From Spirochaetota bacterium (GTDB lineage: Bacteria > Spirochaetota > Spirochaetia > Treponematales > UBA12059), in NCBI GenBank assembly GCA_026398615.1, contig JAPLSN010000011.1, positions 12,577 to 76,576 on the forward strand: a stretch of DNA of 64,000 nt, read 5' to 3'. Positions 42,603 to 59,347 of the stretch are shown one piece after another; the first letter of the stretch is position 1, and each line of letters opens with the position of its first letter. Both the position numbers and the translations under genes were made by a program. The notes under the pieces are model-generated. The model saw nothing but the letters and a program-made list of their open reading frames with translations, was not told the DNA's origin and made no database searches.

Positions 42603-43766
42603 TCATTTCGCAGGTCCCACCGCCGCGTAGAAATCCTTGAGCTGGTCGTCGTTTTCGGGGACGAGGATGGTTCCATCCACGATCTTGCGCTTGATGGCGT
42701 CGAGATCGGAAAAATACGGTTTCAGCGCGTCCTCGTTGTACTGGTTCACGGCAAAATCGACCCCGCCGTCCGCGAGCTCGAAGAGGCGGTATCCCCCGCG
42801 CACTTCCTCCCGGTCCATGAGTTCCTTGCCCAGGAGGAATACGGCCCGGTCGACCCGCTTGATCATGGACGTGACGATGATCGACCCGTACTTGACCAGT
42901 TCCGGGACACCCGAGTCATGGTAGATGGCGCCCTGGTCCGAGTCCACGCCGATCGCGAGCTTGTCGTTCTCGAAAGCCGCCTTGAATACGCCGGCCCCCG
43001 ACGCACCGGACGCGTGGAAGATGATTGCCGCCCCCCTTACGAACATCTCGTAGGAGGCGGCGTACGCGCCGTACGGGTCATTGAAGCCCGTGACGTCCGG
43101 CGCAACGTACTTCGTCACGAATCCGCCAGGGAGCAGCGCCGGGTTCGTGAACGCGGCGCCCGCGTAGAACCCGACCCTGAACCTGTTGACGATCGGGCTG
43201 TTGGTGCCGCCGAGGAAGCCGACGCGCCTGGACTGGTCGCTCCGGGTGAGGTAGCCGGCGAGTGCCCCCACCATGAACGCGCCCTCGTGCTCGGAAAAAT
43301 TCACGCAGGTGATATTGGAATCAGTATTGAGGTTCGGGATGATGCCGTCCACGACCGCGAAGTGGGTATCCGGGAAGTTCTTGGCGGTGATGAGGGCCGC
43401 CTCGGTGTAGGCGTTGCCGATCCCGATCACGAGGTCGTAGCCGTCCTCCGCGAAGAACCGGAACAACTGCTCGTTGTCCCGGCCGTCGGCCTTGGTTTCC
43501 AGGTAGCGGAGCTGGAGGCGGTAGCCTTTGCTCACGCCGTCGGGATCGTCGACGATGAAACCATAGAAGGTTTCGGCCAGGATCTTGATGCCTTCGTATG
43601 CCGAATCGTTGAACGCGCGGTCGCCGCGTCCGCCGATGTCGAACGCCACGCCGATCTTGTGCACGGGTTTCACCGGCCCGACGAAATTCCCGCCCGTGGT
43701 CGATTCCCTGCGGCATCCCGATGCCAGGGCCAGGACCGCCGCGAGGACGAGCGCCATCCTTTTCAC
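42603..43766 (-). CDS. BMP-family (PnrA/TmpC-like) binding lipoprotein
   Basis: LASGC lipobox, [34 protein letters not shown]; GTG start. Confidence 0.9.
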
Positions 43767-43853
43767 CGTCTTTTCCTTTCGACACGGGCTGGTGCCAACG
43801 GACCGCAGGGTCCGCACGACGCGAGGGGGCATCCCGGGCTCCCTCGCGGGAGG

Positions 43854-44801
43854 TCAGCGTTTACCCGCGTCGTAGATCTCTCCGGCGGCCTTCGGGCCGA
43901 CCGATTTGCCGCTGAACACGATGAGCGCGACGATCGTGAGCACGTACGGAAGGACATAGAAGACGTCGGTCGGAACCGACGAGAGGAAGGGAATGTCCTT
44001 GGCGTAGTACGAGAGGGTCTGGGCGAACCCGAAAAAGAACCCGGCGCCCAGCACGCCCCACGGATTCCATTTCCCGAAGATGAGCGAAGCGAGGGCGATG
44101 AAGCCCGTGCCATGCACCGAGCCGATTGTGTACTGGATGTCCTGGGTCAGCACCATCGTGGCGCCCGCGAGCCCCGCGAGGGCGCCCGAGGCTCCCACAC
44201 CGATGTAGCGCATCCAGAAGACGTTGATGCCCATGGACGCCGCCGCCTGGGGATTCTCGCCGCAAGCCCGGAGCCTGAGGCCGAAGGGGGTCTTGTAGAC
44301 GACGAACCAGGTGAACGCGACGAGGGCCAGGGCGATGTAGAAGGTCGGGTAGATCTCCGTGAAGACCGCCGGCCCGAGGATCGGGATGCGGTTGAGCAGG
44401 GGCACCGTGACTTTCAGGACGCCGGTCTGGAAGGAACTCGTCCGCTGCTGGTTGAAGAAGATCTGGCAGAGGTAGACGGTAAGCCCGCCGGCCAGGATGT
44501 TGAGGGCCGTGCCCGACACGACCTGTTCGGATTTGAGGTTGATGCTGGCGAAAGCGTGGAGCATCGAAAATACGATGCCCGCGAGGATGCCGACGCCGAG
44601 CCCTATCCATCCCGCCAGGGGCGTGACGGGTTCGAGGACCACTATGATCGAAGCGGCCGCGAAACCGCCCACCATCATGATGCCTTCGAGGCCGATGTTC
44701 ACGATGCCGGAGCGTTCGCTGAACAGCCCGCCGAGCGCGGCGATGACGATCGGCGTGGTGCCCGCCAGGGCGATGGGAAACATCTGGACGAGGATGTTCA
44801 T
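43854..44801 (-). CDS. Nucleoside-type ABC transporter permease (NupC-like)
   Basis: SERSGIVNIGLEG, GLRLRACGENP, GFIALA.LIFGKWNP, LPYVLT. Confidence 0.9.
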   Translation of the reverse strand: MNILVQMFPIALAGTTPIVIAALGGLFSERSGIVNIGLEGIMMVGGFAAASIIVVLEPVTPLAGWIGLGVGILAGIVFSMLHAFASINLKSEQVVSGTALNILAGGLTVYLCQIFFNQQRTSSFQTGVLKVTVPLLNRIPILGPAVFTEIYPTFYIALALVAFTWFVVYKTPFGLRLRACGENPQAAASMGINVFWMRYIGVGASGALAGLAGATMVLTQDIQYTIGSVHGTGFIALASLIFGKWNPWGVLGAGFFFGFAQTLSYYAKDIPFLSSVPTDVFYVLPYVLTIVALIVFSGKSVGPKAAGEIYDAGKR

Positions 44802-45889
44802 GCCTCGGCCTCCTTGGGGGGTTCTTTCCTCGTCCGCATGCGCTCCAGGATGTAGGTGATGCCGTGCTTCATCGCCACGAACATGACGATGGATGCTTGG
44901 ATGATGCCGGCGATCTCCTTCGGGATGCCCTGGGACTGCATGAGCGGCTGGGCCGCCTTGAGCATGCCGAATAGGAGGCCCGACAGGAAGATGCCCGGCG
45001 CGACGTTGCCGCCGACCAGCGCCACGGCGATGCCGTCGAAACCGTAGCCCTCCGCCATCGGAAGCGCGCGCCCGAAGTTGAAGGTACCCACCGTGATGAT
45101 GGCGCCCGCGAGACCGGCGAAGGCGCCCGCCATGGTCATGGACAGCACGACGTTCCTGTTGACCTTCATGCCCGCGTATCTGGCCGCGTCCTTGTTGAAG
45201 CCCACGGCCCGGAGGCTGTAGCCGAACGTGGTCTTTTCGATCACGAACCAGTATACGATGAGGGCGATGATGACCGGCACGAAGCCCCAGTTGAGGCGCG
45301 ATCCCCGCGTGAGCTGGGACAGCATCGGATCCTTGAGTAGGGCGGTGACGGGGAATTCGGCGGTCTTGACGCGGTCGGCGCTGTGGAACACGTCGAGGAT
45401 GGCCCAGTTGTTCACGAAGAACGCCACGTAGTTCAGCATGATCGTCACGACCACTTCGTGCACGTTGAATTTCGCCTTGAGGTAGCCGGGGATGGCGCCC
45501 CAGAACCCGCCCGCGACCATCGCGCCGAGCAGCACGAGGACGACGTGGATCCCCGGGGGAGCCTTGACGCCCAGGGCGACGATGGCTGCCGCGAGCGAAC
45601 CCACCACGAACTGCCCCTCGGCGCCGATGTTGAAGAGGCCGGTCCTGAAGGCGAAACCGACCGATAGCCCGGTCAGGATGATGGGCAGGGCCTGGATCAC
45701 GAACTCGCCGATGTAGCGCGGGTTGAACTTGCCCGTCTTGATGATAACGCCGGACGCACCCTGGATCATCGCGCTGAACATCGCGATCGGGTTCTTGCCG
45801 GTGAGGAGAATGATGACCGATCCGGTGAGGAACCCGAGGAGTACGGCAACGAGGGACACGACGAGGGCGTCCCGATTCCTGTTCGCCAT
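44798..45889 (-). CDS. Nucleoside-type ABC transporter permease (NupB-like)
   Basis: GLFNIGAEGQ, HEVVVTIMLNY, GYSLRAVGFN, GFDGIAVALVG. Confidence 0.9.
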   Translation of the reverse strand: MANRNRDALVVSLVAVLLGFLTGSVIILLTGKNPIAMFSAMIQGASGVIIKTGKFNPRYIGEFVIQALPIILTGLSVGFAFRTGLFNIGAEGQFVVGSLAAAIVALGVKAPPGIHVVLVLLGAMVAGGFWGAIPGYLKAKFNVHEVVVTIMLNYVAFFVNNWAILDVFHSADRVKTAEFPVTALLKDPMLSQLTRGSRLNWGFVPVIIALIVYWFVIEKTTFGYSLRAVGFNKDAARYAGMKVNRNVVLSMTMAGAFAGLAGAIITVGTFNFGRALPMAEGYGFDGIAVALVGGNVAPGIFLSGLLFGMLKAAQPLMQSQGIPKEIAGIIQASIVMFVAMKHGITYILERMRTRKEPPKEAEA

Positions 45890-45891
45890 GC

Positions 45892-47412
45892 TTACACCGC
45901 CTTCCGGATCGAGCCCGACATCATGAGGCCGAGCTCGTTCTCGTCGGTTTCCGACGCGTTCACGAGACCGACGATCTCGCCGCCGTAGATGACCGCTATG
46001 CGGTCCGAGACGTCGAGCACCTCGTCCAGCTCCAGCGACAGGAGGAGGATCGCCTTGCCCTTGTCGCGCTCCGCGATGATGCGCGTATGGATGTACTCGA
46101 TGGCGCCCACGTCGAGGCCGCGCGTCGGCTGGGCTACGATGAACACCTCGGGGGAAAGGTCGATCTCGCGCGCGACGATGGCCTTCTGCTGGTTCCCGCC
46201 GGACATGGAACGGGTCGGCGTCGCGGGGCCCTGGCCGCAGCGGACGTCGAATTCCGCGATGAGCCGGTTCGCGTTCGTCCTGATCGACTTGAAATCGAGC
46301 ACGAAGCCCTGCGCGAAGGGTTTCCTGTTGTAGTTGTGCACGACGAGATTTTCGTCGAGCCTGAAATCCAGGACCAGGCCGTGCTTGTGGCGGTCCTCGG
46401 GGATGTGGCCAAGGCCGCAGGAAAAGCGTTCCTTGACGGAGACATGGGCGATATCCATCCCCTTGAGGAGGATCTTCCCGCTCTCGACCGGGGTCAGGCC
46501 CGTGATCGCCTGGACGAGCTCGGTCTGCCCGTTGCCGTCGATGCCGCACACGCCGAGAATCTCGCCGCGGCGGACCTCCAGTGAAAGGTTCTTCACGCCG
46601 AGGAGGCCTTTCGGGTTGCGGACGTTGAGGCATTCGATCCTGAGGAGGACATCCCCCGGCTCGGCTGGCTTTTTCTGGACATGGAAGTTGACTTCGCGGC
46701 CGACCATCATCTCCGCCATCCTGGCTTCGGAGGTTTCCGCCACCGGGACCGTACCGATGTACTTGCCCCTGCGGAGCACCGTGCACTGGTCGGCGACTTC
46801 CTTGATTTCCTTGAGCTTGTGGGTGATGAGGAGGACCGTCTTCCCCTCCTGCACGAGCCGGCGCATGATGTGCATGAGCTCGTGTATCTCCTGCGGCGTG
46901 AGTACGGCCGTCGGTTCGTCGAAGATCAGGATTTCCGCGTCGCGGTACAGCATCTTGAGTATTTCGACGCGCTGCTGCATGCCCACCGAGATGTTCTCGA
47001 TGATGGCTTCCGGGTCCACGTTGAGGCCGTAGAGTTCGGAGATCTTCCTGACCCGGGCGGCGGCGGACTTGCGGTCGATGACGAGGCCCTTGCGGGGTTC
47101 GATCCCGAGGATGATGTTCTCGGTGACGGTGAAGTTGTGGACGAGCTGGAAGTGCTGGTGGACCATGCCGATCCCCAGCTCGTTCGCCACGTTCGGGTCG
47201 TGGATCGCGACTTCCTTCCCCCTGACCCTGATGATTCCGGAATCCGGCTGGTAGAGCCCGAACAGTATGCTCATGAGCGTGGACTTGCCCGCTCCGTTCT
47301 CCCCGAGGAGGGCGTGGATCGAGCCCTGCTCCACCTGGAGCGTGACGCGATCGTTGGCGCGAATGCCGGGGAAGTCCTTGATGATGTCGATCATTTCGAT
47401 GATATGCGGCAC
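45892..47412 (-). CDS. Nucleoside-type ABC transporter ATP-binding protein (NupA-like, two domains)
   Basis: GENGAGKSTL, GMVHQHF, DEPTAVLTPQE, SGGNQQK, QPTRGLDVGA. Confidence 0.92.
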   Translation of the reverse strand: MPHIIEMIDIIKDFPGIRANDRVTLQVEQGSIHALLGENGAGKSTLMSILFGLYQPDSGIIRVRGKEVAIHDPNVANELGIGMVHQHFQLVHNFTVTENIILGIEPRKGLVIDRKSAAARVRKISELYGLNVDPEAIIENISVGMQQRVEILKMLYRDAEILIFDEPTAVLTPQEIHELMHIMRRLVQEGKTVLLITHKLKEIKEVADQCTVLRRGKYIGTVPVAETSEARMAEMMVGREVNFHVQKKPAEPGDVLLRIECLNVRNPKGLLGVKNLSLEVRRGEILGVCGIDGNGQTELVQAITGLTPVESGKILLKGMDIAHVSVKERFSCGLGHIPEDRHKHGLVLDFRLDENLVVHNYNRKPFAQGFVLDFKSIRTNANRLIAEFDVRCGQGPATPTRSMSGGNQQKAIVAREIDLSPEVFIVAQPTRGLDVGAIEYIHTRIIAERDKGKAILLLSLELDEVLDVSDRIAVIYGGEIVGLVNASETDENELGLMMSGSIRKAV

Positions 47413-47496
47413 GCTTGTTCCCCCTGATGAGGTTTATCGGAAAACTATATCACAGGACGCGGTGCGGAGGAACTGTAAATCCTCCCATCGGGCGTG

Positions 47497-47525
47497 AAAA
47501 AAGGCCGCCCCCGGCGGGGACGGCC
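47497..47525 (-). terminator. Terminator-like hairpin after the BMP gene
   Basis: ggccg.ccc / gggacggcc stem with a 6-A run. Confidence 0.7.
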
Positions 47526-47549
47526 CTGTCTTCGATAGGATCGGGGAAA

Positions 47550-48563
47550 TTACTTCTTCGCGGGAATTTCGGACACGACGAGCTTGCCGGAAGCGATCTG
47601 CTTCTCGTAGTCGGCGATCTTGGCGATGATGTCCTTCGAAAGGTTGGGGTTCGTGGCGGGGATGCTGACGCCCTTGTTCTTCACGTTGAAGACCAGGACC
47701 TGGCCGCCGGGGAACTTGCCGGCCATCGTGAGGACGGCCACGTCGTGCGCGGCGACGTCGACGCGCTTCATCATGCTGGTGAGGACGGCGGACTTGGTGC
47801 CGTACACACCGTCGGCGTACTGATCCTTGTCGACGCCGATGGCCCAGCGGATGTCGCCCTTCTGGGAGCGTTCCTTGGCTTCCTTGATGACGCCGTTGCC
47901 GGTGCCGCCCGCGGCGTGGAAGATGATGTAAGCGCCCGCGTTGAACTGCTTCACGGCGAGGGCCTGGCCTTTGCCCGGGTTGCCGAAGTCGCCGGCATAG
48001 TCGACGAGGACGGTGATCTTGGGATCCACGGCCTTGACGCCCTGCTCGAAACCGGCCTGGAACTTCTCGATGAGCGGGAACTGCATGCCGCCGACGAAGC
48101 CGACCATGTTCTTCTTGGCCTTCTTGGCCTGCATGCCGGCGGCGACGCCGACGAGGAAGGAACCCTCGTGCTCGGCGAAGACGGCGCTGGCGACGTTCGG
48201 CTTGTTGACGACGGAGTCGATGATCAGGAGCTTCTGGGTGGGATACTGGTCCGCGACTTCGCCCATGGCCTTCTCGAAGAGGAAACCCGGGGCCACGATG
48301 AGGTCGAGACCTTCGTCGGCGAAGGTGCTGAGGTTCGGGACGTAGTCCGCTTCGGCGGTGGACTGGAGATACTTGACATCCGTGCCGACGACGAGCTTGT
48401 TCTCGGTGGCGAACCGCTTGATGCCTTCCCAGGTGCCCTGGTTGAAGGACTTGTCATCGATGCCGCCGACGTCGGTAACGAGGCCGACGCGGAAGGCCGG
48501 AGCCGCGAACACCGCGACGATGGCGGTCAGCGCGACGAGAGCGAAAACAATACGCTTCTTCAT
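47550..48563 (-). CDS. BMP-family (PnrA/TmpC-like) nucleoside-binding protein
   Basis: GGIDDKSFNQ, FAEHEGSFLVG, IGVDKDQ, SMMKRVD; signal peptide without Cys. Confidence 0.92.
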   Translation of the reverse strand: MKKRIVFALVALTAIVAVFAAPAFRVGLVTDVGGIDDKSFNQGTWEGIKRFATENKLVVGTDVKYLQSTAEADYVPNLSTFADEGLDLIVAPGFLFEKAMGEVADQYPTQKLLIIDSVVNKPNVASAVFAEHEGSFLVGVAAGMQAKKAKKNMVGFVGGMQFPLIEKFQAGFEQGVKAVDPKITVLVDYAGDFGNPGKGQALAVKQFNAGAYIIFHAAGGTGNGVIKEAKERSQKGDIRWAIGVDKDQYADGVYGTKSAVLTSMMKRVDVAAHDVAVLTMAGKFPGGQVLVFNVKNKGVSIPATNPNLSKDIIAKIADYEKQIASGKLVVSEIPAKK

Positions 48564-48602
48564 GTACATGCTCCTTTGACTTGAACAGATGTGCGAAATT
48601 AG

Positions 48603-48790: not shown

Positions 48791-49567
48791 TCAGGCGATC
48801 CGGAGCGTGATGCCCAGGCCCCGTATGATCCCGGAATATTCGGCGGAAATGCCCGAATCGGTGATGATCTCGTCGAAAGTCGAGAGATCCGCAAAATAGT
48901 CGGAGCGAACCACCCCGAATTTCGAGGAATCGACCAGGAGGATCTTCATCATCGAGGACTGGATCGCCGCCATCTTGGTTTCCCGTTCGTAGGGGTTCAT
49001 GCACGTGACGCCGAACTGCCGGCTCGCTCCCGCGGAGGATATGAAGGCTTTCGTCGCCCGGAAGCGCCTGATCATGTCGAGCCCCTCGGGGCTCTCGAAC
49101 ATGAGGGTGTTCCCATGGAAGATGCCGCCTGAGAACAGGGACGTGCAATTCTTCCGCCGGACCGTCTCCGAGAGGATGTTGAGCGACCAGCTGAGGACGG
49201 TGTAGTGCCGGTCGTCCGGCAGGCACTTGGCAAGGTACTCGGTGGTCGAGCCGGAATCGATGATCAGGGTATCGTCCGCCTCGATGAGCGAGGCCGCGAG
49301 CGACCCGATCGTCCGCTTCTGTTCCTGCCATTTCGCGCCCGCGGCGATGAGCGAATAATGGTTCTCCCCGGTTCGGATATCGTTCTTCGGGTGGAGGATG
49401 ACGCTTCCGTGGAGGATCTTGACGAGTTCGTCGTCGACGAGCGGCACGAGATCCCGCCTGATCGTCATGTGGGAAACCTTCAACTCCCGCGACAGCTCCT
49501 GCACGCTCGAAGCCTTGTCGGTCTCGAGGATCCGCAGTATATAGCTCAAGCGCTCGGACCTGTTCAT
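48791..49567 (-). CDS. deoR: DeoR/GlpR-family transcriptional regulator
   Basis: HTH VSHMTIRRDL, IDSGSTT, VDSSKFG; divergent from the deoC-containing operon. Confidence 0.9.
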   Translation of the reverse strand: MNRSERLSYILRILETDKASSVQELSRELKVSHMTIRRDLVPLVDDELVKILHGSVILHPKNDIRTGENHYSLIAAGAKWQEQKRTIGSLAASLIEADDTLIIDSGSTTEYLAKCLPDDRHYTVLSWSLNILSETVRRKNCTSLFSGGIFHGNTLMFESPEGLDMIRRFRATKAFISSAGASRQFGVTCMNPYERETKMAAIQSSMMKILLVDSSKFGVVRSDYFADLSTFDEIITDSGISAEYSGIIRGLGITLRIA

Positions 49568-49669
49568 CCATCTTCCCCGGTGCGGATGCCCGCTGGCTGG
49601 CAAATACGGTAGTGGAGTTCCGTCGATGCAGCTTGACAATATCCTGAATGGAAGGTAAAGACAACCCGA

Positions 49670-49734: not shown

Positions 49735-50061
49735 GGACTGGAAAGCAGCTGGGCAGCTGCCCTGATCGAGGAGGGAATGCATGAAAAGGCGACAATTCCC
49801 GAACCCGGAAACCTTGCCATGCAGTACACTGGATTCGAGCAGTGTGTTGAAACAGGCAATGGAGCCTGTTCAACACTACCTGGATTTCCGCGATTGTGCA
49901 GGAAACCGACAGGTTTTCGAGCAATTGCAGACTGCGTTTCACCCGCTCGGTATCCCCGTTTCCGGTCGATGAATGCCAAGGGCGGCGCCCCTGCGGGCAC
50001 TCGGTATGGCGGGCGCCGGGGCGGACCGGCAGGGCGACAAGGGCTTGAAAGAGGAGGAATC

Positions 50062-50361
50062 ATGGCTGAAGGAAAGGGCGCGCTCGGGATGATCGAAACG
50101 AAAGGATTCGCCGCCATGGTGGAAGCCGCGGACGCGATGGTGAAGGCGGCCAATGTCGACCTCGTCGGGTTCGAGAAGATCGGCGGCGGGTACGTCACGG
50201 CCATCGTGCGCGGCGACGTGGCCTCCTGCAGGGCGGCCGTCGACGCCGGCGTCAAGTCGGCGGAGAAGGTCGGCGAGGTGGTGTCGACCCACGTGATCCC
50301 GAGGCCGAATGGCGCGGTCGACGCGACGCTGCCGCTCGGCGGGTCCGGGGTGGAGGCATAG
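50062..50361 (+). CDS. BMC hexamer shell protein (BMC-H)
   Basis: [39 protein letters not shown]; GAGGAGG SD. Confidence 0.96.
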
Positions 50362-50364
50362 GCC

Positions 50365-51006
50365 ATGGCGATAGATCTCAGGACATACGTATTCCTCGAT
50401 TCGCTCCAGCTGCAGAACGCCTCGTTCATCGCGACGATCAGCAAGGGTTACTATCCGATCGGCATGCAGGCATGCTGCATCATAGAGATCGCGCCCGGCA
50501 TCGAGATCAACCGGCTGACGGACATCGCGCTCAAGGCGACCAACGTCACGCCGGGCCTGCAGATCGTCGAGCGGGCCTACGGCCTCCTCGAAGTGCATTC
50601 GGACAGCCAGGGCGATGCGCGCATGGCCGGCGAGGCTGTGCTGCGCGAGCTCGGCATGACCGAGGAGAACAGGCTCAAGCCGCGGGTCATGACGAGCCAG
50701 CTGATCAAGAACGTCACGGACCACCACGCGCAGCTGATCAACAAGGTCCGTCACGGGAACATGATCCTGCGGGGCGACACGCTCTACGTGCTCGAGGTCG
50801 AGCCGGCGGGGTACGCCTACTTCGCCTCCAACGAGGCCGAGAAAACCTCCGATGTCAACATCATCGAGGTACTGGGATTCGGCGCCTTCGGCCGCGTGTA
50901 CATCGCGGGTGACGAGGCCGAGGTGATCGAGGCGAGGAAAGTGGTGGAAGCGAGGCTCGCGGACATCGGCGGCAGGGTCCTGGACACCAAGGCGGCGCGG
51001 ATATAG
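50365..51006 (+). CDS. Tandem-domain BMC shell protein (BMC-T, double-stacking CcmP/CsoS1D-like type)
   Basis: LRTYVFLDSLQ, EIAPG, VERAYGLLEVH, EPAGYA..NEAEK, FGAFGR. Confidence 0.92.
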   Translation: MAIDLRTYVFLDSLQLQNASFIATISKGYYPIGMQACCIIEIAPGIEINRLTDIALKATNVTPGLQIVERAYGLLEVHSDSQGDARMAGEAVLRELGMTEENRLKPRVMTSQLIKNVTDHHAQLINKVRHGNMILRGDTLYVLEVEPAGYAYFASNEAEKTSDVNIIEVLGFGAFGRVYIAGDEAEVIEARKVVEARLADIGGRVLDTKAARI

Positions 51007-51067
51007 ACGCTGACCGGATCCGATGGACGATGTGCGGACCGGCAATGACCGACAAGGAGATGGCGAC

Positions 51068-51373
51068 ATGGCAGAAACGAACGATGCGCTCGGGATGATC
51101 GAGACCAGGGGATTCGCCGGGATGGTGGAAGCCGCCGACGCGATGGTTAAGGCGGCCAAGGTCGACCTCATCGGGTTCGAGAAGATCGGCGGCGGGTACG
51201 TCACGGCGATCGTGCGCGGCGACGTGGCCGCGTGCCGCGCGGCGGTCGACGCCGGCGCCAGGTCGGCGGAGAAGGTCGGCGAGGTGGTGTCGACCCACGT
51301 GATCCCGAGACCGCATGAGGCGGTGGACGCGGTCCTCCCCCTGGGCAGGAAGCCCGCCGCGGCCAAGAAGTAG
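51068..51373 (+). CDS. BMC hexamer shell protein (BMC-H), second copy
   Basis: [31 protein letters not shown]. Confidence 0.96.
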
Positions 51374-51386
51374 CGAGGGAGCCCCG

Positions 51387-51689
51387 ATGGTACTCGCGCG
51401 GGTGAGGGGGACCGTGGTCTCCACGCACAAGCCCTCCAGCATGGAAGGCCTCAAGCTGCTCCTCCTCGAGAAGGTCGATCCCGTGACCATGAAGGGCAAG
51501 GGCGATTTCGTCGTGGGGGTCGACAGCGTCGGGGCCAATGCCGGGGAGATCGTGTTCTTCGTGACCGGGTCGAGCGCGCGGATGACCGAGACGACGAAGG
51601 GAAAACCTTCGGACGCCACGATCATCGCGATCGTCGACGCGATAGAGAAGGACGGCGCCCTGACGTACGAGAAGGCCCGGCCCGAATGA
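51387..51689 (+). CDS. BMC pentamer (EutN/CcmL family)
   Basis: ARVRGTVVST.K, KLLL, DSVGA..GE.V...GSSAR, DATIIAIVD. Confidence 0.95.
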   Translation: MVLARVRGTVVSTHKPSSMEGLKLLLLEKVDPVTMKGKGDFVVGVDSVGANAGEIVFFVTGSSARMTETTKGKPSDATIIAIVDAIEKDGALTYEKARPE

Positions 51690-51976
51690 ACATGGCCCGT
51701 GTCCGCGGCACCGTCGTCGCGACCGCGCGGTCGGACGGCGTCGCGCATGCGCGCTTCCTGCTCGTCGAGGAATGCGACCAGAAGGGCGAAGGCAGGGGCG
51801 AATACCTCGTCGCGCTGGACATGGTGGGCGCGGAGAGGGGACATCTGGTCCTGCTCGCGCAGGGCAGCTCCTGCAGGTGGACCCGGGAAACCGACGGGAA
51901 GCCCATGGACGCCCTCATCGTGGCGATCGTCGACCGGATGGACCAGGCCGGCGTGGATGTCTGGAAGCAGGATTGA
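51686..51976 (+). CDS. BMC pentamer (EutN/CcmL family)
   Basis: ARVRGTVVAT, VALDMVGA, QGSSCR, DALIVAIVD. Confidence 0.93.
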   Translation: MNMARVRGTVVATARSDGVAHARFLLVEECDQKGEGRGEYLVALDMVGAERGHLVLLAQGSSCRWTRETDGKPMDALIVAIVDRMDQAGVDVWKQD

Positions 51977-51987
51977 CGGGAGCGGGC

Positions 51988-53421
51988 ATGGCAGACTTGA
52001 CTGACAAGATCCGGCTGATCGCCGAGCAGGTGCTCGGGAGCCAGGATATACAGGCGCTGCTGAGGGGTGCCGAACCCGTCCCCGCCGCGCCCTCGAGGGC
52101 GGGCATTTTCCGCGATATCGACTCCGCGGTGGCCGCGGCGGCGGTGGCGCAGCGCGAGCTGGCCGCCCTGCCCCTCGAGAGACGCAAGGCGATGATCGCG
52201 GCGATGCGCCGCGTCATCGCCTGGAACAACAGGGACCTGTCGGAAGCGGCGGTGGCCGAGACGGGCTTGGGGAACCTCGCGGACAAGCAGGCGAAGAACG
52301 CGCTCGCCGCGGAGAAGACGCCGGGGGTCGAGGACATCGAGCCGACGGCGAGGACCGACGAGCACGGGCTCACCCTCACCGAGCCGGCTCCCTGGGGGGT
52401 CATCGGCGCGATCACCCCCGTGACCAACCCGATCGCGACGATCGTCTGCAACGCGATCGGCATGATCGCCGCCGGCAATAGCGTCGTGTTCAACGTCCAC
52501 CCCGGTGCCAAGGGTATTTCCTGCCGGCTGGTCGGCATGCTCAACGAGGCCATCATCTACGAAAGGGGGCCGCGCAACCTGCTGTGCGCGATCGCCGAAC
52601 CCACGATCGAGAGCGCCGGCGAGCTGATGAGGCACCCCGGGATCGCGCTCCTCGTCGTCACGGGCGGACCGGCCGTCGTGAAGGCGGCGATGGGGAGCGG
52701 CAAGAAGGCGATCTGCGCGGGACCGGGCAATCCGCCCTGCGTGGTCGACGCTACCGCGGACATCCCCAAGGCGGGGAGGGACATCGTCGCGGGCGCCAGC
52801 TTCGACCACAACGTGGTCTGCATCTGCGAAAAGGAAGTCCTCGCCGTGGACGCCATCGCCGACAGGCTCAAGGACGAGATGAGGAAGAACGGCGCATGGG
52901 AGCTCACCGGGGCGCAGATCGACGCCGTCACCAAGCTGGTGATCGCCGAGCCGGGCGGCCCCGACCGCGAGGGCGCCCCGAACAAGGCCTGGGTCGGCAA
53001 GAGTCCGGTCGCGATCGCGCGGGCTGCCGGCATCGAGGTCCCCCCGGAGACGAGGCTCCTCCTGATGGAGGTGGGCCGCGAACACCCGCTCGTGTGGACG
53101 GAGCAGCTCATGCCCGTCCTGCCCCTCGTGCGCATGAAGGACGTCGACGAGGCGATCGACTTCGCCGTGCTGGTGGAGCGGGGCTGCCGCCACTCCGCCA
53201 TGATCCACTCGCACGACATCGTGAAGCTTTCGCGCATGGCCAAGGCCATGGACTGCTCGCTGTTCGTCAAGAACGGGCCCTGCTACGCCGGCCTCGGCCA
53301 AGGCGGGGCCGGGCACACGTCCTTCACGATCGCGAGCCCCACGGGCGAGGGCATCACGCGCGCCCGCACCTTCACGCGCGAGCGCAGGTGCACGCTCGTC
53401 GACTCGTTCCGGATCGTGTGA
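51988..53421 (+). CDS. CoA-acylating aldehyde dehydrogenase (EutE/PduP family)
   Basis: PWGVIGAITPVTNP, VTGGPAVV, AGPGNPP, SFDHNVVCICEKE, EQLMP, TIASPTGEG. Confidence 0.95.
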   Translation: MADLTDKIRLIAEQVLGSQDIQALLRGAEPVPAAPSRAGIFRDIDSAVAAAAVAQRELAALPLERRKAMIAAMRRVIAWNNRDLSEAAVAETGLGNLADKQAKNALAAEKTPGVEDIEPTARTDEHGLTLTEPAPWGVIGAITPVTNPIATIVCNAIGMIAAGNSVVFNVHPGAKGISCRLVGMLNEAIIYERGPRNLLCAIAEPTIESAGELMRHPGIALLVVTGGPAVVKAAMGSGKKAICAGPGNPPCVVDATADIPKAGRDIVAGASFDHNVVCICEKEVLAVDAIADRLKDEMRKNGAWELTGAQIDAVTKLVIAEPGGPDREGAPNKAWVGKSPVAIARAAGIEVPPETRLLLMEVGREHPLVWTEQLMPVLPLVRMKDVDEAIDFAVLVERGCRHSAMIHSHDIVKLSRMAKAMDCSLFVKNGPCYAGLGQGGAGHTSFTIASPTGEGITRARTFTRERRCTLVDSFRIV

Positions 53422-53429
53422 GGGCTGCG

Positions 53430-53708
53430 ATGAAACTCGCGAAAGTCATAGGCAGGGTGGTCAGCACGAGGAAACTGCCCTGCTTCGAGGGCCTGAAGCT
53501 CCTGCTCGTGCAGCCGCTGGACCAGAAGCTCCAGGATTCGGGGCCCGCCATCGTGGCATGGGATACGGCAAGGGCGGGAGAGGGCGATCTCGTGTTCTTC
53601 GAGTCCGGCAAGGAAGCCGCCCAGGCCAACCCGAACGGCTGGTTCAATCCCGGCGACGCGGCCATCCTGGGCATCGTCGACTCGGTCGACCGGGAGGAGA
53701 TGCCATGA
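53430..53708 (+). CDS. BMC pentamer (EutN/CcmL family)
   Basis: MKLAKVIGRVVSTRK, KLLLVQP, AGEGDLV, DAAILGIVD. Confidence 0.93.
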   Translation: MKLAKVIGRVVSTRKLPCFEGLKLLLVQPLDQKLQDSGPAIVAWDTARAGEGDLVFFESGKEAAQANPNGWFNPGDAAILGIVDSVDREEMP

Positions 53709-53986
53709 TGGCCGGCAAGGTGGTGGCCAAGGTCGTATCCACGGAGAAGCATGCGCATTACGTGGGATACAAGCTGCTCATGGTCCAGCCGCTCGACGAC
53801 GGTGGGAAGCCAAGCGGCAGGCCCCTGCTCGCCGTGGACGGCGTGCAGGCGGGCGTCGGCGACCTCGTACTCGTGGTGGACGAAGGCGGTTCGGCCAGGA
53901 GCGTCGTCGGCGACGAGCAGGCCGTCACGATACGGACGGCGATCTGCGGGATCATCGACAGGATCGATATCGAGGTGGACGAGTGA
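53705..53986 (+). CDS. BMC pentamer (EutN/CcmL family)
   Basis: GKVVAKVVSTEK, KLLMVQP, DGVQAGVGD.V...EGGSAR, ICGIID. Confidence 0.93.
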   Translation: MMAGKVVAKVVSTEKHAHYVGYKLLMVQPLDDGGKPSGRPLLAVDGVQAGVGDLVLVVDEGGSARSVVGDEQAVTIRTAICGIIDRIDIEVDE

Positions 53987-54474
53987 GCGATCGAGATGAC
54001 GGCGAATTCGCGGACCCGGTCCGCAGCGTCGCGATGGGGGCCGACCATGGCGCGGTCGCCCAGAAGGAAATGCTGGCGAGGTACCTCGGGCTCCTCGGGT
54101 ATCTCGTCGTGGATGTCGGATGTTTCGGCACCGACAAGGCGGATTATCCCGATATCGCCGCGGCGGTCTGCCGCAAGGTCGTCTCGGGCGACTGCGAGCG
54201 CGGGATCGTCCTCGACGGAGCGGGCATCGGCTCCTGCATGGCCGCCAACAAGGTCAGGGGAATCAGGGCGGCGCTGTGCTACGACCTCAGGACGGTCGTC
54301 AACAGCAGGGCGCACAACAACGCGAACGTGCTGACCCTCGGCGGCCCCATGCACGGACCCGACGCGCTCGCGGAAATGGCGCGGGTCTGGCTCGAGACGC
54401 GCTTCGAGGGCGGACGTCACATCGTGCGCATAAACAAGATGATGGCATTGGAGCGTGGAGGCTCGATCGACTGA
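53983..54474 (+). CDS. rpiB: RpiB/LacAB-family sugar-phosphate isomerase
   Basis: [37 protein letters not shown]. Confidence 0.92.
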
Positions 54475-55274
54475 TGGACCAGAACCAGATCATCCAGAAG
54501 ATAGTGGAGGAAGTCATGGCGAGGATGGTCGCCGTGCCGGGAGCGCAGGCGGCCGCACCGGTCCCGCCCGCCAAGCCGGCGGCCGGAGCCGGGGAAGGCT
54601 TGTTGCCCCCGGACCTGGCGAAGTACATCGACCATACGCTCCTCAAGCCCGATGCCACCGTGGAGCAGATAAACGTGCTCTGCGACGAAGCGGTGAAGTA
54701 TCGCTTCTGGTCGGTGTGCGTGAATTCCTCGTGGGTGGAGTATTGCGCGCGAAAGCTCGGAGGAACTGGCGTGAAGGTGTGCGCGGTCGTCGGATTCCCC
54801 CTCGGCGCGATGGACAGCCGCTCCAAGGGTCTCGAGGCCCGGACCGCGGTGGCCAACGGCGCCGCGGAGATCGACATGGTCGTCAACATGGGCACGCTCA
54901 AGGCCAAGGACCTGAAGGCGGTCCGCGAGGACATGCTTGCGGTGCGCAGGGCTTGCAGGGCCGGGATCGTGCTCAAGGTCATCATCGAGACCTGCCTCCT
55001 GACCGACGAGGAAAAGGTGCTCGCCTGCCAGATCGCCAAGGATATCGGCGCGGATTTCGTGAAGACCTCGACCGGGTTCAGCAAGAGCGGCGCCACGGTC
55101 GCTGACATAACGCTGATGCGCAGGACGGTCGGCCCCAAGATGGGAGTGAAGGCATCGGGAGGGGTAAAGAGTTTTGAGGACGCCGTCCAGATGATACGTG
55201 CGGGAGCCACGCGGCTCGGGACGAGCTCGGGCGTCGCCATCGTGAGCGGGCAGGCGGGCTCCGCGGCCTATTGA
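54474..55274 (+). CDS. deoC: Deoxyribose-phosphate aldolase with an N-terminal encapsulation-peptide-like extension
   Basis: [45 protein letters not shown]. Confidence 0.96.
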
Positions 55275-55327
55275 GCATCGCGTCGCCACACGTGGCTCCG
55301 CGCGGCCGGTGCCGACCGGATACCGCC

Positions 55328-55999
55328 CTATTCCGGAAGCTCTGAGACAATGCTGACGCCTGAACTCGCCCCAATCCGATCCGCGCCGGCGTCGAGCATC
55401 TGGAGGGCGTCGTGGTAGTTGCGCAAGCCCCCGGAGGCCTTGATCTTCATCCGGTTGCCGACGACCTTGCGCATGAGGCGGACGTCGTCCACGCTGGCGC
55501 CGCCGGTGCCGAATCCCGTGCTCGTCTGCACGAAGCGCGCCCCGGCCTTGAGGGACGCCTCGCAGGCCTTCTCCTTCTCGGCGTCGGTGAGATAGCAGGT
55601 CTCGATGATCACCTTGACGGTCGCGTTCCCCGAGGCCTTGACGACCGACCGGATGTCGTCCTCGACGGCGCGCCAGTCGCCGGACTTGGCTGCCCCGACA
55701 TTGATCACCATGTCGACTTCGCGGGCTCCCTGCTTCACCGCCAGCGCTGCCTCGGCCGCCTTCACCTCCGTGGCGTTGGCGCCGAGGGGGAAGCCGATGA
55801 CGGTGCAGACCATCACCTTCGAACCTGCGAGCTCACGGGCGCAAAGCGGCACCCAGCAGGGATTGACGCAGACACCCGCGAAGCAGAACTTCCGCGCCTC
55901 GGCGCAGAGCTCGCGGATCTGCTGCTCGGTCGCGATGGTCTTGAGGGTCGTGTGATCGATCGTCGCCGCCAGTGCGTCCTTGGTCCATGCAGTGGGCAT
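55328..55999 (-). CDS. deoC: Second DeoC homologue with the Schiff-base Lys replaced by Gln
   Basis: IDHT, IGFPLGA, EVDMV, KVIIET, KASGG, RIGASS present, but FVQTSTGF instead of FVKTSTGF. Confidence 0.9.
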
Positions 56000-56070
56000 G
56001 TGTGACTCCTCTTTTTTACGGGCGCGCCCCGGACGGGGTGCACCTCTCCAGATCTGGAAACAGCACTCTG

Positions 56071-56655
56071 CTAGAGCAGTTCGCGCCGCGTCTGGACCAG
56101 CTTCCGGAGCTCGTCGAGCATCCGCCTGTCCACCGACTCGGCGATGGGATAGATGAATCTTTCCGTCTCGTCCGTGTAGCGGACGATGAACTCCACGTCG
56201 GTAACGTATCCGATCGAGATCATGTTGCTGATCCTGTCCGCGGTCTTGAGCACCCTCGCCGAACGGGATCCGAAACGCCTGATCCGTTCCAGGAATTCCG
56301 GTTTCGTCTCGACGGGACGGCGGGTCACCTCGAGCACCAGCTTGTAGACCTCCGCGGCTTCGTCGTCGATCTCGAGGATGGAACCCCGGTCCAGATCCGG
56401 CAGGTCCTCGACGATGTCGTGGATGAGGCTCGCCTTGAGCAGGACCGAGTCGATGTAGCCGTAGTCCATGAGTATGCCCAGGGTGTCGATCTGGTGGCGG
56501 AACATGTTGCCGCCGGATCTCCTGGGCTTGCCGATGAGCGCGGAGGCCAGCTGGATGTAGGGCGCCAGGTGCATCTCCCTGAGCTTGACCATGTCGTCGG
56601 GCTTCATGAGGAGAATGTCATCGCCGTGAGGCGCGTCGCCTTGGCTCTTGTCCAT
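56071..56655 (-). CDS. Stand-alone HD-domain protein, RelA/SpoT hydrolase (Mesh1/SAH)-like
   Basis: R.SG....[25 protein letters not shown]. Confidence 0.75.
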
Positions 56656-56707
56656 GATGCTCCGTGTCGACATCCAGGCGGACTGACAGCACCCGCCTGA
56701 ACTCCTT

Positions 56708-59347
56708 TCAGGCCAGATCCCGGACGTATTGTTCGAGCTTGCCGATCCTGCGCTCGGCTTCGGCCAGCTTCTCGCGCTCCCCCCGTACGATCTCCTCGGG
56801 GGCCGACGCGGTAAAATTGCCGTTGGACAGTTTCGTCCTGAGTCGCTCGGCGAAGGAGCGTTCCTTTTCGGCGTCCTTGGAGAGCTTCGCGGCCAGTTCC
56901 TTCGCGTCGATGACGTCGCGCACGATCACCCAGGCTTCGAAGCCGTTCCCCACGAGCGCCACGGCGCCTTCCGGCTTGACGTCCGCCTTCTCCAGGCCGG
57001 GCGCGTTCGCGAGCAGGGCGACCAGGGCGCCGTTCTGGATTATGTACTCGGCGGCAGCGAAACCCGGTTCGAAACGGACGGCCACGCGCGCCTTCTTCTC
57101 CGGCGCCACGCCGAACTCGGAACGCAGGGTACGCACGAGCCGCACGAGCTCCTGCAGCGAGCCGAATTTCACCCCGAGTTCCGGGGCTTCCCGTTCCTTC
57201 GACGGTTCGGGGTACTTGCGGACGATGAGCCGCCCTCGCTTGTTCGGCAGCATCCCGTAGATCTCCTCGGTCACGAAGGGAAGCAGGGGATGCAGGAGGG
57301 CGAGCGTCTCCTCGAGCACGTCGAGGAGGATCGTGGCGGCGCGGTCCTTTTCGCGGCCGTCGTCCCCGCGGAAGGAAATCTTGGTCGCCTCGATGTACCA
57401 GTCGCAGAAGTCGTTCCAGAAGAATTCGTGCGCCGCCTGGGCCGCCTCGTTGAAGCGGTAGCCTTCCAGCGAGCCACGGCAGGCCGCGGCGGCGGCGTTC
57501 AGCCTGTGGAGGATCCAGCGGTCGACGTCGCTGTACCCGAGGGAACCCGCGGGGAGGAGTTCGCGTCCCTCGAGGTTGCCGAGGATGTAGCGGCTGGCGT
57601 TCCAGAGCTTGTTCGCGAACCTGGAGCCGAGCTTGAAGCTTTCCCTGTCGACGAGGACGTCCTGGCCAGAGGCGCAGTTGAAGGCAAGCGTGAACTTGAG
57701 GGCGTCGGCGCCGTATTCGTCCACGATCTCCAGCGGATCGAGGCCGTTCCCGAGGGACTTGGACATCTTCCTGCCCTGCTTGTCGCGGACGAGGCCGTGG
57801 ATGCAGACGTCGCGGAAGGGGCTCTTCCCGGTGAATTCCATGCCTGCCATGATCATCCGCGCCACCCAGAAGAAGATGATGTCGTAGCCGGTCATGAGGG
57901 TCGACGTCGGGTAGAACTTCCGGAAATCGGCCGTGTCCTTCGGCCAGCCGAGGGTGCTGAACGGCCAGAGCCAGCTGGAGAACCAGGTGTCCAGCACGTC
58001 CTCGTCCCGGCGGAGTTCCGTCGACCTGCACTTCGGGCAGATCACCGGATCATCGCGGTCCGCGATGACGTGGCCGCAGGAGTCGCAGTACCACACGGGA
58101 ATGCGGTGACCCCACCAGAGCTGGCGGCTGATGCACCAGTCGCGGATGTTGGTGAGCCAGTGCTCGTAGGTGTGCTCCCACTTCTTCGGGTAGAAGACCA
58201 CGTCGCCGTCGCGCCAGGCCTTGAGGGCCTTTTCCGCGAGCGGCTTCATGCGCACGAACCACTGCTTCGAAAGGAAGGGCTCGATGGTCGTGCCGCAGCG
58301 GTAGCAGTGTCCCACCGCGTGCGCGTGCTCCCTGACCTCCTTGAGTAGGCCCGCGGCCTCGAGATCCGCCAGCACGGCTTCGCGTGCCGCAACCACCTTC
58401 ATGCCCCGGTATTTCCCCGGGACATTGTCGTTGAGCGTGCCGTCGGGCGCGAGCACGTTGATCCGCTGAAGGCCGTGGCGGTTCCCTACCTCGAAGTCGT
58501 TCGCGTCGTGCGCCGGGGTGATCTTCACGATCCCGGTGCCGAAGGTCCGGTCCACATAGGAGTCGGCGATGACCGGTATGAGGCGATCGGTCAGGGGCAG
58601 CTTCACGCGTTCGCCGACGAGGGCGGCGTAACGCTCGTCGTCGGGATGCACGGCCACCGCCGTGTCCCCGAGGAGGGTTTCCGGACGGGTGGTGGCGATC
58701 TCGATGCGCCCCGAGCCGTCCGCCAGCTCGTACCAGATATGGTACATCTTGCCGTTCTCGTCCGCGTGCTCGACCTCGTCGTCGGAGAGGGCCGTACCGC
58801 AGGACGTGCACCAGTTCACGAGGTACTCGCCGCGGTAGACGAGGCCGCGCTCGTAGAGCATCACGAAGACGTCGCGCACCGCCCGGGAGAGCCCGTCGTC
58901 GAGGGTGAATCGCTCGCGGCTCCAATCCACGCTGGCCCCGATCCTCGCGAGCTGGTTCCGGATGAAGGCCTTGTGCTCTCTGGCCGTCTTCCAGGTTTCC
59001 TCGACGAACGATTCGCGCCCGAGTTCGTGGCGGCTCCTGCCTTCCTTGCGCAGGCGCCGTTCCACGACGTTCTGCGTGGCGATCCCGGCGTGGTCCGTGC
59101 CCGGCACCCAGAGCGTGGGGCGGCCGAGCATGCGGTTGTAACGCACGGAGATGTCCTGAAGGCTGTTGTTGAGGCCGTGCCCCATGTGGAGCACGCCGGT
59201 CACGTTCGGAGGGGGGATGACGACGACGAAGGGCTGTTTCCCGGCTTCCCCGGCGGGCTCGAAGAGCCGCTCGGATTTCCACATCGCGTAGATGCGGTCT
59301 TCGAAGCCTTTCGGGTCATAGGCCTTCGCCAGCTCGATCGCTTTCAC
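56708..59347 (-). CDS. valS: Valine--tRNA ligase
   Basis: PPPNVTGVLHMGH, DHAGIATQ, DWCISRQLWWGH, KMSKS, C-terminal coiled coil. Confidence 0.97.
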   Translation of the reverse strand: MKAIELAKAYDPKGFEDRIYAMWKSERLFEPAGEAGKQPFVVVIPPPNVTGVLHMGHGLNNSLQDISVRYNRMLGRPTLWVPGTDHAGIATQNVVERRLRKEGRSRHELGRESFVEETWKTAREHKAFIRNQLARIGASVDWSRERFTLDDGLSRAVRDVFVMLYERGLVYRGEYLVNWCTSCGTALSDDEVEHADENGKMYHIWYELADGSGRIEIATTRPETLLGDTAVAVHPDDERYAALVGERVKLPLTDRLIPVIADSYVDRTFGTGIVKITPAHDANDFEVGNRHGLQRINVLAPDGTLNDNVPGKYRGMKVVAAREAVLADLEAAGLLKEVREHAHAVGHCYRCGTTIEPFLSKQWFVRMKPLAEKALKAWRDGDVVFYPKKWEHTYEHWLTNIRDWCISRQLWWGHRIPVWYCDSCGHVIADRDDPVICPKCRSTELRRDEDVLDTWFSSWLWPFSTLGWPKDTADFRKFYPTSTLMTGYDIIFFWVARMIMAGMEFTGKSPFRDVCIHGLVRDKQGRKMSKSLGNGLDPLEIVDEYGADALKFTLAFNCASGQDVLVDRESFKLGSRFANKLWNASRYILGNLEGRELLPAGSLGYSDVDRWILHRLNAAAAACRGSLEGYRFNEAAQAAHEFFWNDFCDWYIEATKISFRGDDGREKDRAATILLDVLEETLALLHPLLPFVTEEIYGMLPNKRGRLIVRKYPEPSKEREAPELGVKFGSLQELVRLVRTLRSEFGVAPEKKARVAVRFEPGFAAAEYIIQNGALVALLANAPGLEKADVKPEGAVALVGNGFEAWVIVRDVIDAKELAAKLSKDAEKERSFAERLRTKLSNGNFTASAPEEIVRGEREKLAEAERRIGKLEQYVRDLA

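Follow-up and report, generated by a model that had tools for sequence, protein, structure and literature searches.

Recurrent replacement of the Schiff-base lysine in a housekeeping DeoC of spirochaetes that carry an SPU-type microcompartment

Why should a bacterium with two copies of deoC, one of them in a microcompartment operon, keep the other at full length with a glutamine in place of the lysine by which deoxyribose-5-phosphate aldolase (DERA) works? The question is raised by the window, a 64,000 nt stretch of a Spirochaetota genome (assembly GCA_026398615.1, contig JAPLSN010000011.1), the relevant features of which are collected in Table 1. An earlier note on this DNA had pointed out the substitution, and had proposed that the cytosolic copy was inactivated so that acetaldehyde production is confined to the compartment, or that it is a pseudo-enzyme serving as a ligand sensor or partner; it had also allowed for a sequencing error or a recent mutation. 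Throughout, Gxxx, Lxxx, gxx and fx are the genome, locus, genus and family labels of the comparison, with G000 being the window's own genome.

Table 1. Features of the window around the two deoC genes
Feature	Position	Strand	Evidence
Bmp/PnrA-type (nucleoside-type) ABC transporter genes	42603..48569	-	Pfam; synteny
DeoR-family regulator, divergent from shell operon	48791..49639	-	Pfam
SPU shell and core gene block	49777..53986	+	Pfam
BMC-H	49777-50361 (ORF)	+	Pfam
CcmP-like tandem BMC protein, 213 aa	50365-51006	+	NF053796 274.6 bits, cut-off 340
BMC-H, second	51023-51373	+	Pfam
EutN/BMC-P, two	51315-51976	+	Pfam
Aldehyde dehydrogenase, start not fixed	51772-53421 (ORF)	+	Pfam
BMC-P, third	53558-53986	+	Pfam
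RpiB-type isomerase-like gene of SPU operon	53983..54474	+	Pfam PF02502 6.7e-46
Microcompartment-type DeoC, N-terminal extension, Lys kept; convergent with lysine-less copy	54474..55274	+	ORF, Pfam
Lysine-less DeoC, 223 aa, final gene of valS-HD-deoC	55328..55999	-	ORF; Pfam PF01791 3e-15; TIGR00126 278.1 bits; 3ngj_A 1.4e-76
Gln158 codon (CAG), aligned with the Schiff-base lysine K167 of E. coli	55526..55528	-	Translation and alignment; contigs of 4 runs
HD-type hydrolase gene, 200 aa, weakly RelA/SpoT-like	56071..56673	-	TIGR00691 3e-6, far under cut-off; synteny
valS (valyl-tRNA synthetase), opens conserved valS-HD-deoC string	56708..59347	-	Pfam; synteny

The second deoC displays a strong AGGAG sequence 7 nt upstream of its ATG, and carries FVQTSTG as its strand motif, the Gln codon (CAG) occupying 55528-55526. 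Alignment with E. coli K-12 DeoC places Gln158 at K167, the residue to which PMC7671976 (in passages) and PMC11585597 (legend to Fig. 2) assign formation of the Schiff base. Every other E. coli residue that was checked has a counterpart, with D16, T18, C47, D102, K137 and K201 matching D15, T17, C44, D96, K129 and K187, respectively. The same is true of the phosphate-binding residues G171, G204/G205 and S238/S239 (a role named in part of PMC7671976), which are kept as G162, G190/G191 and S212/S213. A Lys to Gln replacement within an otherwise intact 223 aa reading frame, as described in the earlier note, is thus borne out.

By sequence, the protein belongs to the DeoC family of TIM-barrel class I aldolases, scoring 278.1 bits against a cut-off of 117.3 on TIGR00126 (the deoC equivalog model), and 23 solved DERA sequences match it at E-values ≤ 1e-20, the best of these being 3ngj_A (1.4e-76). 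It is of the same family and length class as canonical DERA (E. coli DeoC; TIGR00126; EC 4.1.2.4), and equivalents of D102, K137, K201, C47 and the phosphate site are present, with the proton-relay pair (D102 and K201) retained as D96 and K187. It differs in lacking the Schiff-base lysine on the FxKTSTG strand, where K167 has become Gln158 and the defining covalent step is made impossible; automatic annotation would still return an aldolase. Taken together with established DERA chemistry, the loss of this lysine predicts that the protein is dead as a deoxyribose-5-phosphate aldolase.

The copy within the microcompartment operon carries AAG (Lys) at 55062-55064, just as had been noted, and the 3.38 Mb assembly contains no DeoC homologue beyond these two. 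As the two are just 54 % identical, the earlier description of a single-base difference applies to that codon but cannot describe the genes as a whole. Contigs from Logan for four runs, representing four samples of one freshwater-sediment study, cover 55526-55528 with no differing letters, at word depths of about 12, 9, 5 and 4; the assembly may have been built from two of these samples, and contigs, as opposed to raw reads, could hide a minority allele. This agreement makes an assembly slip unlikely, and the same change recurs in relatives (see below). A sequencing or assembly error is an unlikely cause of Gln158, and this part of the earlier caution is not favoured.

The operon that faces the lysine-less gene is an SPU microcompartment by definition, with shell genes, DeoC (pfam01791), RpiB (pfam02502) and aldehyde dehydrogenase all present; these are the type-defining parts as given in portions of Axen 2014 (PMC4207490) and Sutter 2021 (PMC8217296), and in sections 7 and 10 of Dwyer 2024 (PMC11585597). 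The lysine-less deoC converges on this operon from the other side, on the opposite strand, and is not a member of it. Unlike the encapsulated SPU DERAs, whose N-terminal extensions are described in section 7 of PMC11585597, it ends a housekeeping valS-HD-deoC string, lacks the lysine, and has no encapsulation extension when compared with its Lys orthologues. In relatives without a compartment, this string is followed directly by the Bmp-ABC transporter genes, and in G000, g8 and g10 the compartment locus lies between deoC and the Bmp transporter. In all relatives examined, valS and deoC are separated by the HD-type gene; its product in the window returned zero Pfam matches, and may be a small alarmone hydrolase or nucleotidase. 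A consensus scan of 55150-56750 for promoters and terminators yielded no promoter-like sites, and one terminator-like site that is inside the ORF and at chance level. Separately, the shell protein encoded at 50365-51006 scores below the cut-off on a beta-carboxysome CcmP model (NF053796), yet is inside an SPU locus; it has no Pfam BMC match at 1e-5, and its orthologues give weak BMC matches.

The immediate adjacency of gene and locus in G000, g8 and g10 would suit a dead DeoC that acts as a structural partner of the organelle, residing in its core or regulating it, through association with the encapsulated DeoC or the RpiB-like protein. Parts of PMC11585597 describe a complex of SPU DERA with the SPU isomerase-like protein, the latter of which seems non-catalytic, and dead enzymes are known as organelle scaffolds, namely the defunct AldDH of GRM loci (PMC4207490 and PMC11585597, in part) and CcmM (PMC11585597, likewise). 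Such a role is nonetheless very improbable, as the protein has neither an N- nor a C-terminal extension relative to Lys orthologues, and in G013, G022, G064, G099 and G204 the locus was not seen beside the gene, being on another contig or outside the stretch examined.

The substitution is not confined to the window. Motif patterns were searched in 401 genomes of the order (with 150 of 200 matches listed) and, separately, in all 42 genomes of family f1, and loci were followed up; together these reveal Gln in the valS-HD-linked DeoC of at least 16 genomes (G000, G008, G019, G024, G010, G021, G105, G131, G123, G052, G064, G121, G140, G204, G213 and G249), and Met in that of at least eight (G013, G022, G039, G081, G099, G192, G225 and G240). 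One of these, G123 (LLQTSTG), escaped the pattern and was found via its HD neighbour, and other odd motifs may be missed likewise; a match in G277 (VLTGTGFG) was a false positive with DeoC not nearby. Source names for close homologues of the lysine-less DeoC are those of Spirochaetales and Rectinemataceae MAGs. All non-Lys copies examined in the order are the valS-HD-deoC orthologue. Their new residue is encoded by CAG (CAA in one case) or by ATG, all a single base away from AAG or AAA. Among the matches listed, Gln and Met are the only replacements seen in the order, from seven possible one-step missense outcomes.

Both states can occur within a genus. Gln in G000 contrasts with Lys in G001, Met in G013 with Lys in G002, Met in G022 with Lys in G003, G014 and G152, and Gln in G064 with Lys in the other g38 genomes, whilst the other copies read from the genus of G123 have Lys. 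In genus g10, four Gln genomes have the SPU locus, and G148 and G156, with Lys, do not. A tree of 60 valS-linked copies, for which every non-Lys sequence was fetched except the later-found G123, and the Lys sequences of family f4 were subsampled, requires a minimum of 11 switches between Lys and non-Lys. Within it, G000 groups with G001 (support 96/92), and G064 is nested among the Lys-bearing g38 copies. As Gln and Met copies group by genus, alongside the Lys copies of that genus and not with each other, the alleles did not spread with the locus, and their co-transfer with SPU genes is rejected.

For G000 itself, the surroundings are almost wholly of the Lys type. The best 120 closest proteins (73-100 % identical) comprise 118 with Lys, one with Met (G022), and only the window's own with Gln; its closest relatives are 73-81 % identical, and all but G022 have Lys. 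The protein forms a singleton cluster. The near-complete prevalence of Lys in this set indicates that the change is young in the G000 lineage, and it could be viewed as a recent mutation, perhaps mildly deleterious, or as a variant within the population, whose presence in an SPU-bearing genome is coincidental. The modest length of the G000 branch, only 1.43 times that of its Lys sister G001, agrees with this, as does the nature of the site evidence, since contigs drop rare variants. However, 22 further SPU-bearing genomes from the order have the same codon changed to one of the same two residues in the same setting, and the four runs have no other letter at 55526-55528. We thus consider chance improbable, even for G000; it is in this genome only that the recent mutation entertained in the earlier note retains a place. 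The check that the note had proposed, for Gln in valS-HD-deoC orthologues, finds Gln or Met in SPU-bearing genomes of the order, and Lys, apart from one Met, amongst the closest relatives.

What nearly all lysine-less copies of the order share is the microcompartment. Defining SPU-type genomes as those with a protein at ≥67 % identity to the window's encapsulated DeoC returns 32 of the 401, in which the valS-linked DeoC has Gln or Met in 23 and Lys in three (G011, G107 and G216). In four more, all from genus g15 (G027, G031, G171 and G183), the valS-HD string is intact and deoC is absent; the remaining two, G055 (at a contig end) and G067, are left unassigned. Outside these 32, the only non-Lys copy among the matches listed is that of G240, a genome that is 69 % complete and several of whose genus mates (G039, G099, G192 and G204) carry the compartment. 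Family f1, for which all 42 genomes were read, displays the same picture: the 12 with an SPU-type DeoC contain 11 Gln or Met copies and one Lys, and the 30 without contain 27 Lys, no non-Lys, and three with no match. Across six independent pairs on starred branches of the tree of valS-linked copies, the SPU state changed in the same direction in 5.7 on average, and never in the opposite one (sign test, median p 0.031). That lysine is replaced almost only in genomes with an SPU-type DeoC thus appears strongly supported within the order, from comparison of its sequences.

The association is not without exceptions. Ten further genomes harbour a full-length, more divergent compartment-type DeoC (57-63 % identity), and reading the loci of five of these reveals a complete SPU-like locus in three (G136, G189 and G255), with a DeoC of the form FVKTCTGFS or FVKTCTGFA. 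Two of them, G136 and G189, have FVKTCTGFS in the SPU-like DeoC and keep Lys in the valS-linked copy; the 67 % cut missed both, and setting them apart afterwards is post hoc. Together with G011, G107 and G216, at least five genomes with an SPU-like locus therefore retain the lysine. The FVKTCTGFS/A loci (L155 7657-9015, L156 8008-8883 and L157 7884-8888) have Cys for Ser after the Lys and a DeoC that is 57-58 % identical to that of the window, and may handle a different substrate. Another unusual arrangement is that of G208 in family f5 (L158 8773-10442 and 16162-16965), where two tandem DeoC genes and a third, distant DeoC-like gene (FVKISNA) all lie within one shell-gene locus. In genus g23, a third DeoC paralogue with lysine (YVKTSTGFG; 52-59 % identical) is located away from both valS and the compartment locus (L065, L066, L067, L068 and L082). 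It is present with or without the compartment, and also where the valS-linked copy has Met or Gln, so cytosolic DERA activity may persist there.

Once a second DERA is present, the first might simply decay as a redundant copy, with the Gln and Met forms being early, functionless pseudogenes. All 12 lysine-less lineages are indeed longer than the nearest Lys sister since their common node, by ratios of 1.43-3.2, and this acceleration fits relaxed constraint equally well as a new role. Genus g15 has deleted deoC outright, and g8 has altered its active site at other positions too (D to E; TSTG to TGTG). Set against this, the 60 valS-linked copies contain no frameshift or stop, with lengths of 211-233 aa, despite the 11 or more separate changes at one codon, and just two of the seven one-step missense outcomes are seen in the order among the matches listed. 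The dN/dS analysis that the earlier note had proposed, performed by NG86, gave 0.07-0.20 inside clades that inherited the change: medians were 0.139 for g8 (three pairs), 0.168 for g10 (six pairs), 0.0715 for g33 (six pairs), 0.075 for g23 with Met (three pairs) and 0.195 for g43 (one pair). The Lys clades gave 0.04-0.13, as medians of the computed pairs, with several others saturated or containing N.

The remaining catalytic and phosphate-binding residues are also kept. Across 23 spirochaete Gln and Met copies, the K201 equivalent is present in every one and that of D102 in 20, with the other three, all from g8, having Glu. This conservation and the low dN/dS make neutral decay an improbable account of the class. 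A lost catalytic residue combined with purifying selection characterizes a pseudoenzyme, and this holds for the class through five lysine-less clades; the earlier suggestion of a pseudo-enzyme is to that extent upheld, whilst the G000 branch itself is outside these clades. Positions that vary little or not at all across 37 Lys copies show recurrent co-changes in the 12 lineages, namely T17S in five, alteration of L31 in five, and S42 to G or A in seven; G000 has S42G and T169S only.

The reading that we prefer, with a probability of roughly 0.55, is that the cytosolic DERA would have been surgically killed by selection after the organelle arrived, and that the protein would have been retained to bind a sugar phosphate without catalysis. 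The valS-HD-linked DeoC would be unable to form the Schiff base, and would accordingly possess no deoxyribose-5-phosphate aldolase activity. A free cytosolic DERA in an SPU-bearing lineage would cleave deoxyribose-5-phosphate outside the shell, releasing acetaldehyde in the cytosol, and could also run in reverse on products that escape the shell. Lineages of this kind would be expected to lose exactly the nucleophile, by change of Lys to Gln or Met, or to delete deoC. It is the comparative pattern that suggests that a cytosolic DERA becomes harmful once an SPU locus with its own DeoC is present, so that its nucleophile is removed or the gene deleted. Given purifying selection, and the retention of the phosphate site and the D102/K201-equivalent pair, the lysine-less DeoC has most likely retained sugar-phosphate binding in the absence of turnover. 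That such binding would serve as a buffer, a carrier or a regulator is a guess.

Lysine-less DeoCs are also found in other phyla. When species-representative genomes were scanned for the Gln form, 45 matches were obtained, 41 inside DeoC genes and four not. The 41 derive from 11 Cohnella species and one Bacillota MAG, eight Acidobacteriaceae or Acidobacteriota, ten spirochaete loci, seven MAGs placed in one order with Ca. Humimicrobium, and single representatives of Verrucomicrobiota, Nitrospirales, Hydrogenedentota and Ca. Humimicrobium (Atribacterota). Shell genes are present in 17 of the 31 non-spirochaete genomes, and the neighbours of deoC there are housekeeping genes. Examples of the strings so formed are prmA-rsmE-mtaB-NUDIX-deoC in Cohnella (L130 9818-10962), and ybeY-GNAT-era-deoC-recO-glyQS in Atribacterota-like MAGs (L131 8539-11062), both of which place the gene beside translation-related genes, as does valS-HD-deoC. 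Several of the MAGs concerned (L094, L108, L111, L116, L123 and L131) are titled Actinomycetota at NCBI and belong to the same order as Ca. Humimicrobium oleiphilum; the label looks wrong.

The Cohnella group has a second DeoC match in all 12 genomes, and the two of these that were read both have Lys and lie by a nucleoside transporter. Shell genes occur in six of the 12, with the one Cohnella shell locus that was read containing no DeoC. For most Acidobacteriaceae examined, the Gln form is the sole close DeoC, and three of the eight have shell genes. The lysine-less DeoCs of Cohnella and Acidobacteriaceae are not tied to the SPU compartment. A closer parallel is provided by the Atribacterota-like order that contains Humimicrobium, where, across 80 genomes, nine have Gln and eight have Glu, all 17 with shell genes, and the Lys forms comprise 24 with shell genes and 36 without. 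These 17 cases are probably about three events, and a second, Lys-bearing DeoC is present in only a few of them; the order is, as such, a partial replicate of the association. The Glu form (FIETSTGFG) occurs at L173 and L174, and in six further genomes (G446-G450 and G498-G500), all with shell genes; no Glu at this site was seen in the spirochaete order among the matches listed. The active site is again retained, with the D102 equivalent in 11 of 12, and the K201 equivalent in all 12, Gln copies of the Cohnella group, and with retention in seven of seven Atribacterota-like and six of six Acidobacteriaceae Gln copies. Of the earlier proposal of inactivation for the sake of the compartment, the link to the compartment is supported by comparison in the spirochaete order, where lysine is lost almost only alongside an SPU-type DeoC and the gene was deleted in one genus, but does not carry over to lysine-less DeoCs found elsewhere without a compartment.

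These distant examples lend credibility, beyond what spirochaete data alone would, to the main rival: that the protein is a working enzyme with new, non-covalent chemistry on a sugar phosphate, performed via the D102/K201-type pair, and that loss of lysine marks a change of function instead of a kill. Only the nucleophile has been replaced, with equivalents of D16, D102, K137, K201, TSTG, G204/G205 and S238 near-invariant in every lysine-less group examined, and some lineages have the Gln form as their sole close DeoC and no shell genes. The recurrent T17S and L31 changes, and the long stem branches followed by low dN/dS within clades, are likewise what a new activity might produce. No new conserved nucleophile is present in the spirochaete Gln and Met copies, however, and Met, Gln and Glu are chemically unlike, having in common only the missing amine. 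The housekeeping neighbours (valS, era-recO-glyQS and prmA-rsmE-mtaB) name no reaction, and G000 differs from its Lys relatives at very few conserved sites. On balance, we regard new chemistry as unlikely, albeit less so than decay or chance.

A broader, and tentative, formulation, which we place well short of even odds, is that lysine-less DeoCs may constitute a distinct, convergent functional class and not broken aldolases, holding deoxyribose-5-phosphate or a related sugar phosphate uncleaved, or acting via the Asp/Lys pair. Housekeeping DERA would then have given rise to such a class on 11 or more occasions within one spirochaete order, with further origins in Atribacterota-like bacteria, in Cohnella, in Acidobacteriaceae and in other groups; where an SPU locus is present, its appearance would be the footprint of selection to contain aldehyde chemistry within the organelle.

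Partial parallels can be found in known systems. The non-catalytic homologues of compartments (the SPU RpiB-like protein, the defunct AldDH of GRM1, and CcmM), as presented in parts of PMC11585597 and PMC4207490, similarly keep their fold after catalytic loss. They differ in being locus-encoded with encapsulation peptides, whereas the lysine-less DeoC is a pre-existing cytosolic orthologue that was altered in place, many times independently. Trypanosomatid deoxyhypusine synthase and the AdoMetDC prozyme, so far as the portions of the literature drawn upon describe them, are likewise dead copies under selection beside an active paralogue; these serve the active partner, whereas the DeoC pair shares 54 % identity, with one member encapsulated. 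A full-text literature search, extending to main texts for the SPU papers, found no paper on a natural lysine-less DERA. The main text of PMC11585597 returned zero matches for lysine, housekeeping, cytosolic and inactive, and the portions of PMC4207490, PMC8217296 and PMC11585597 that were read make no mention of a lysine-less second DeoC copy.

There is a practical consequence for annotation, as the NCBI deoC equivalog cut-off is exceeded by every one of the seven DeoC sequences that were scanned, five of which lack the lysine. A DERA activity that is missing may accordingly be credited in pathway reconstructions for Spirochaetota, Atribacterota-like MAGs, Cohnella and Acidobacteriaceae. If the preferred reading is true, these spirochaetes represent a natural experiment, many times repeated, in which gain of a microcompartment reshapes the cytosolic enzyme set. 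They would also provide in-genome evidence that the shell keeps an aldehyde-forming step away from the cytosol, and would present a testable class of pseudoenzymes, or of new enzymes, within one of the best-studied aldolase families.
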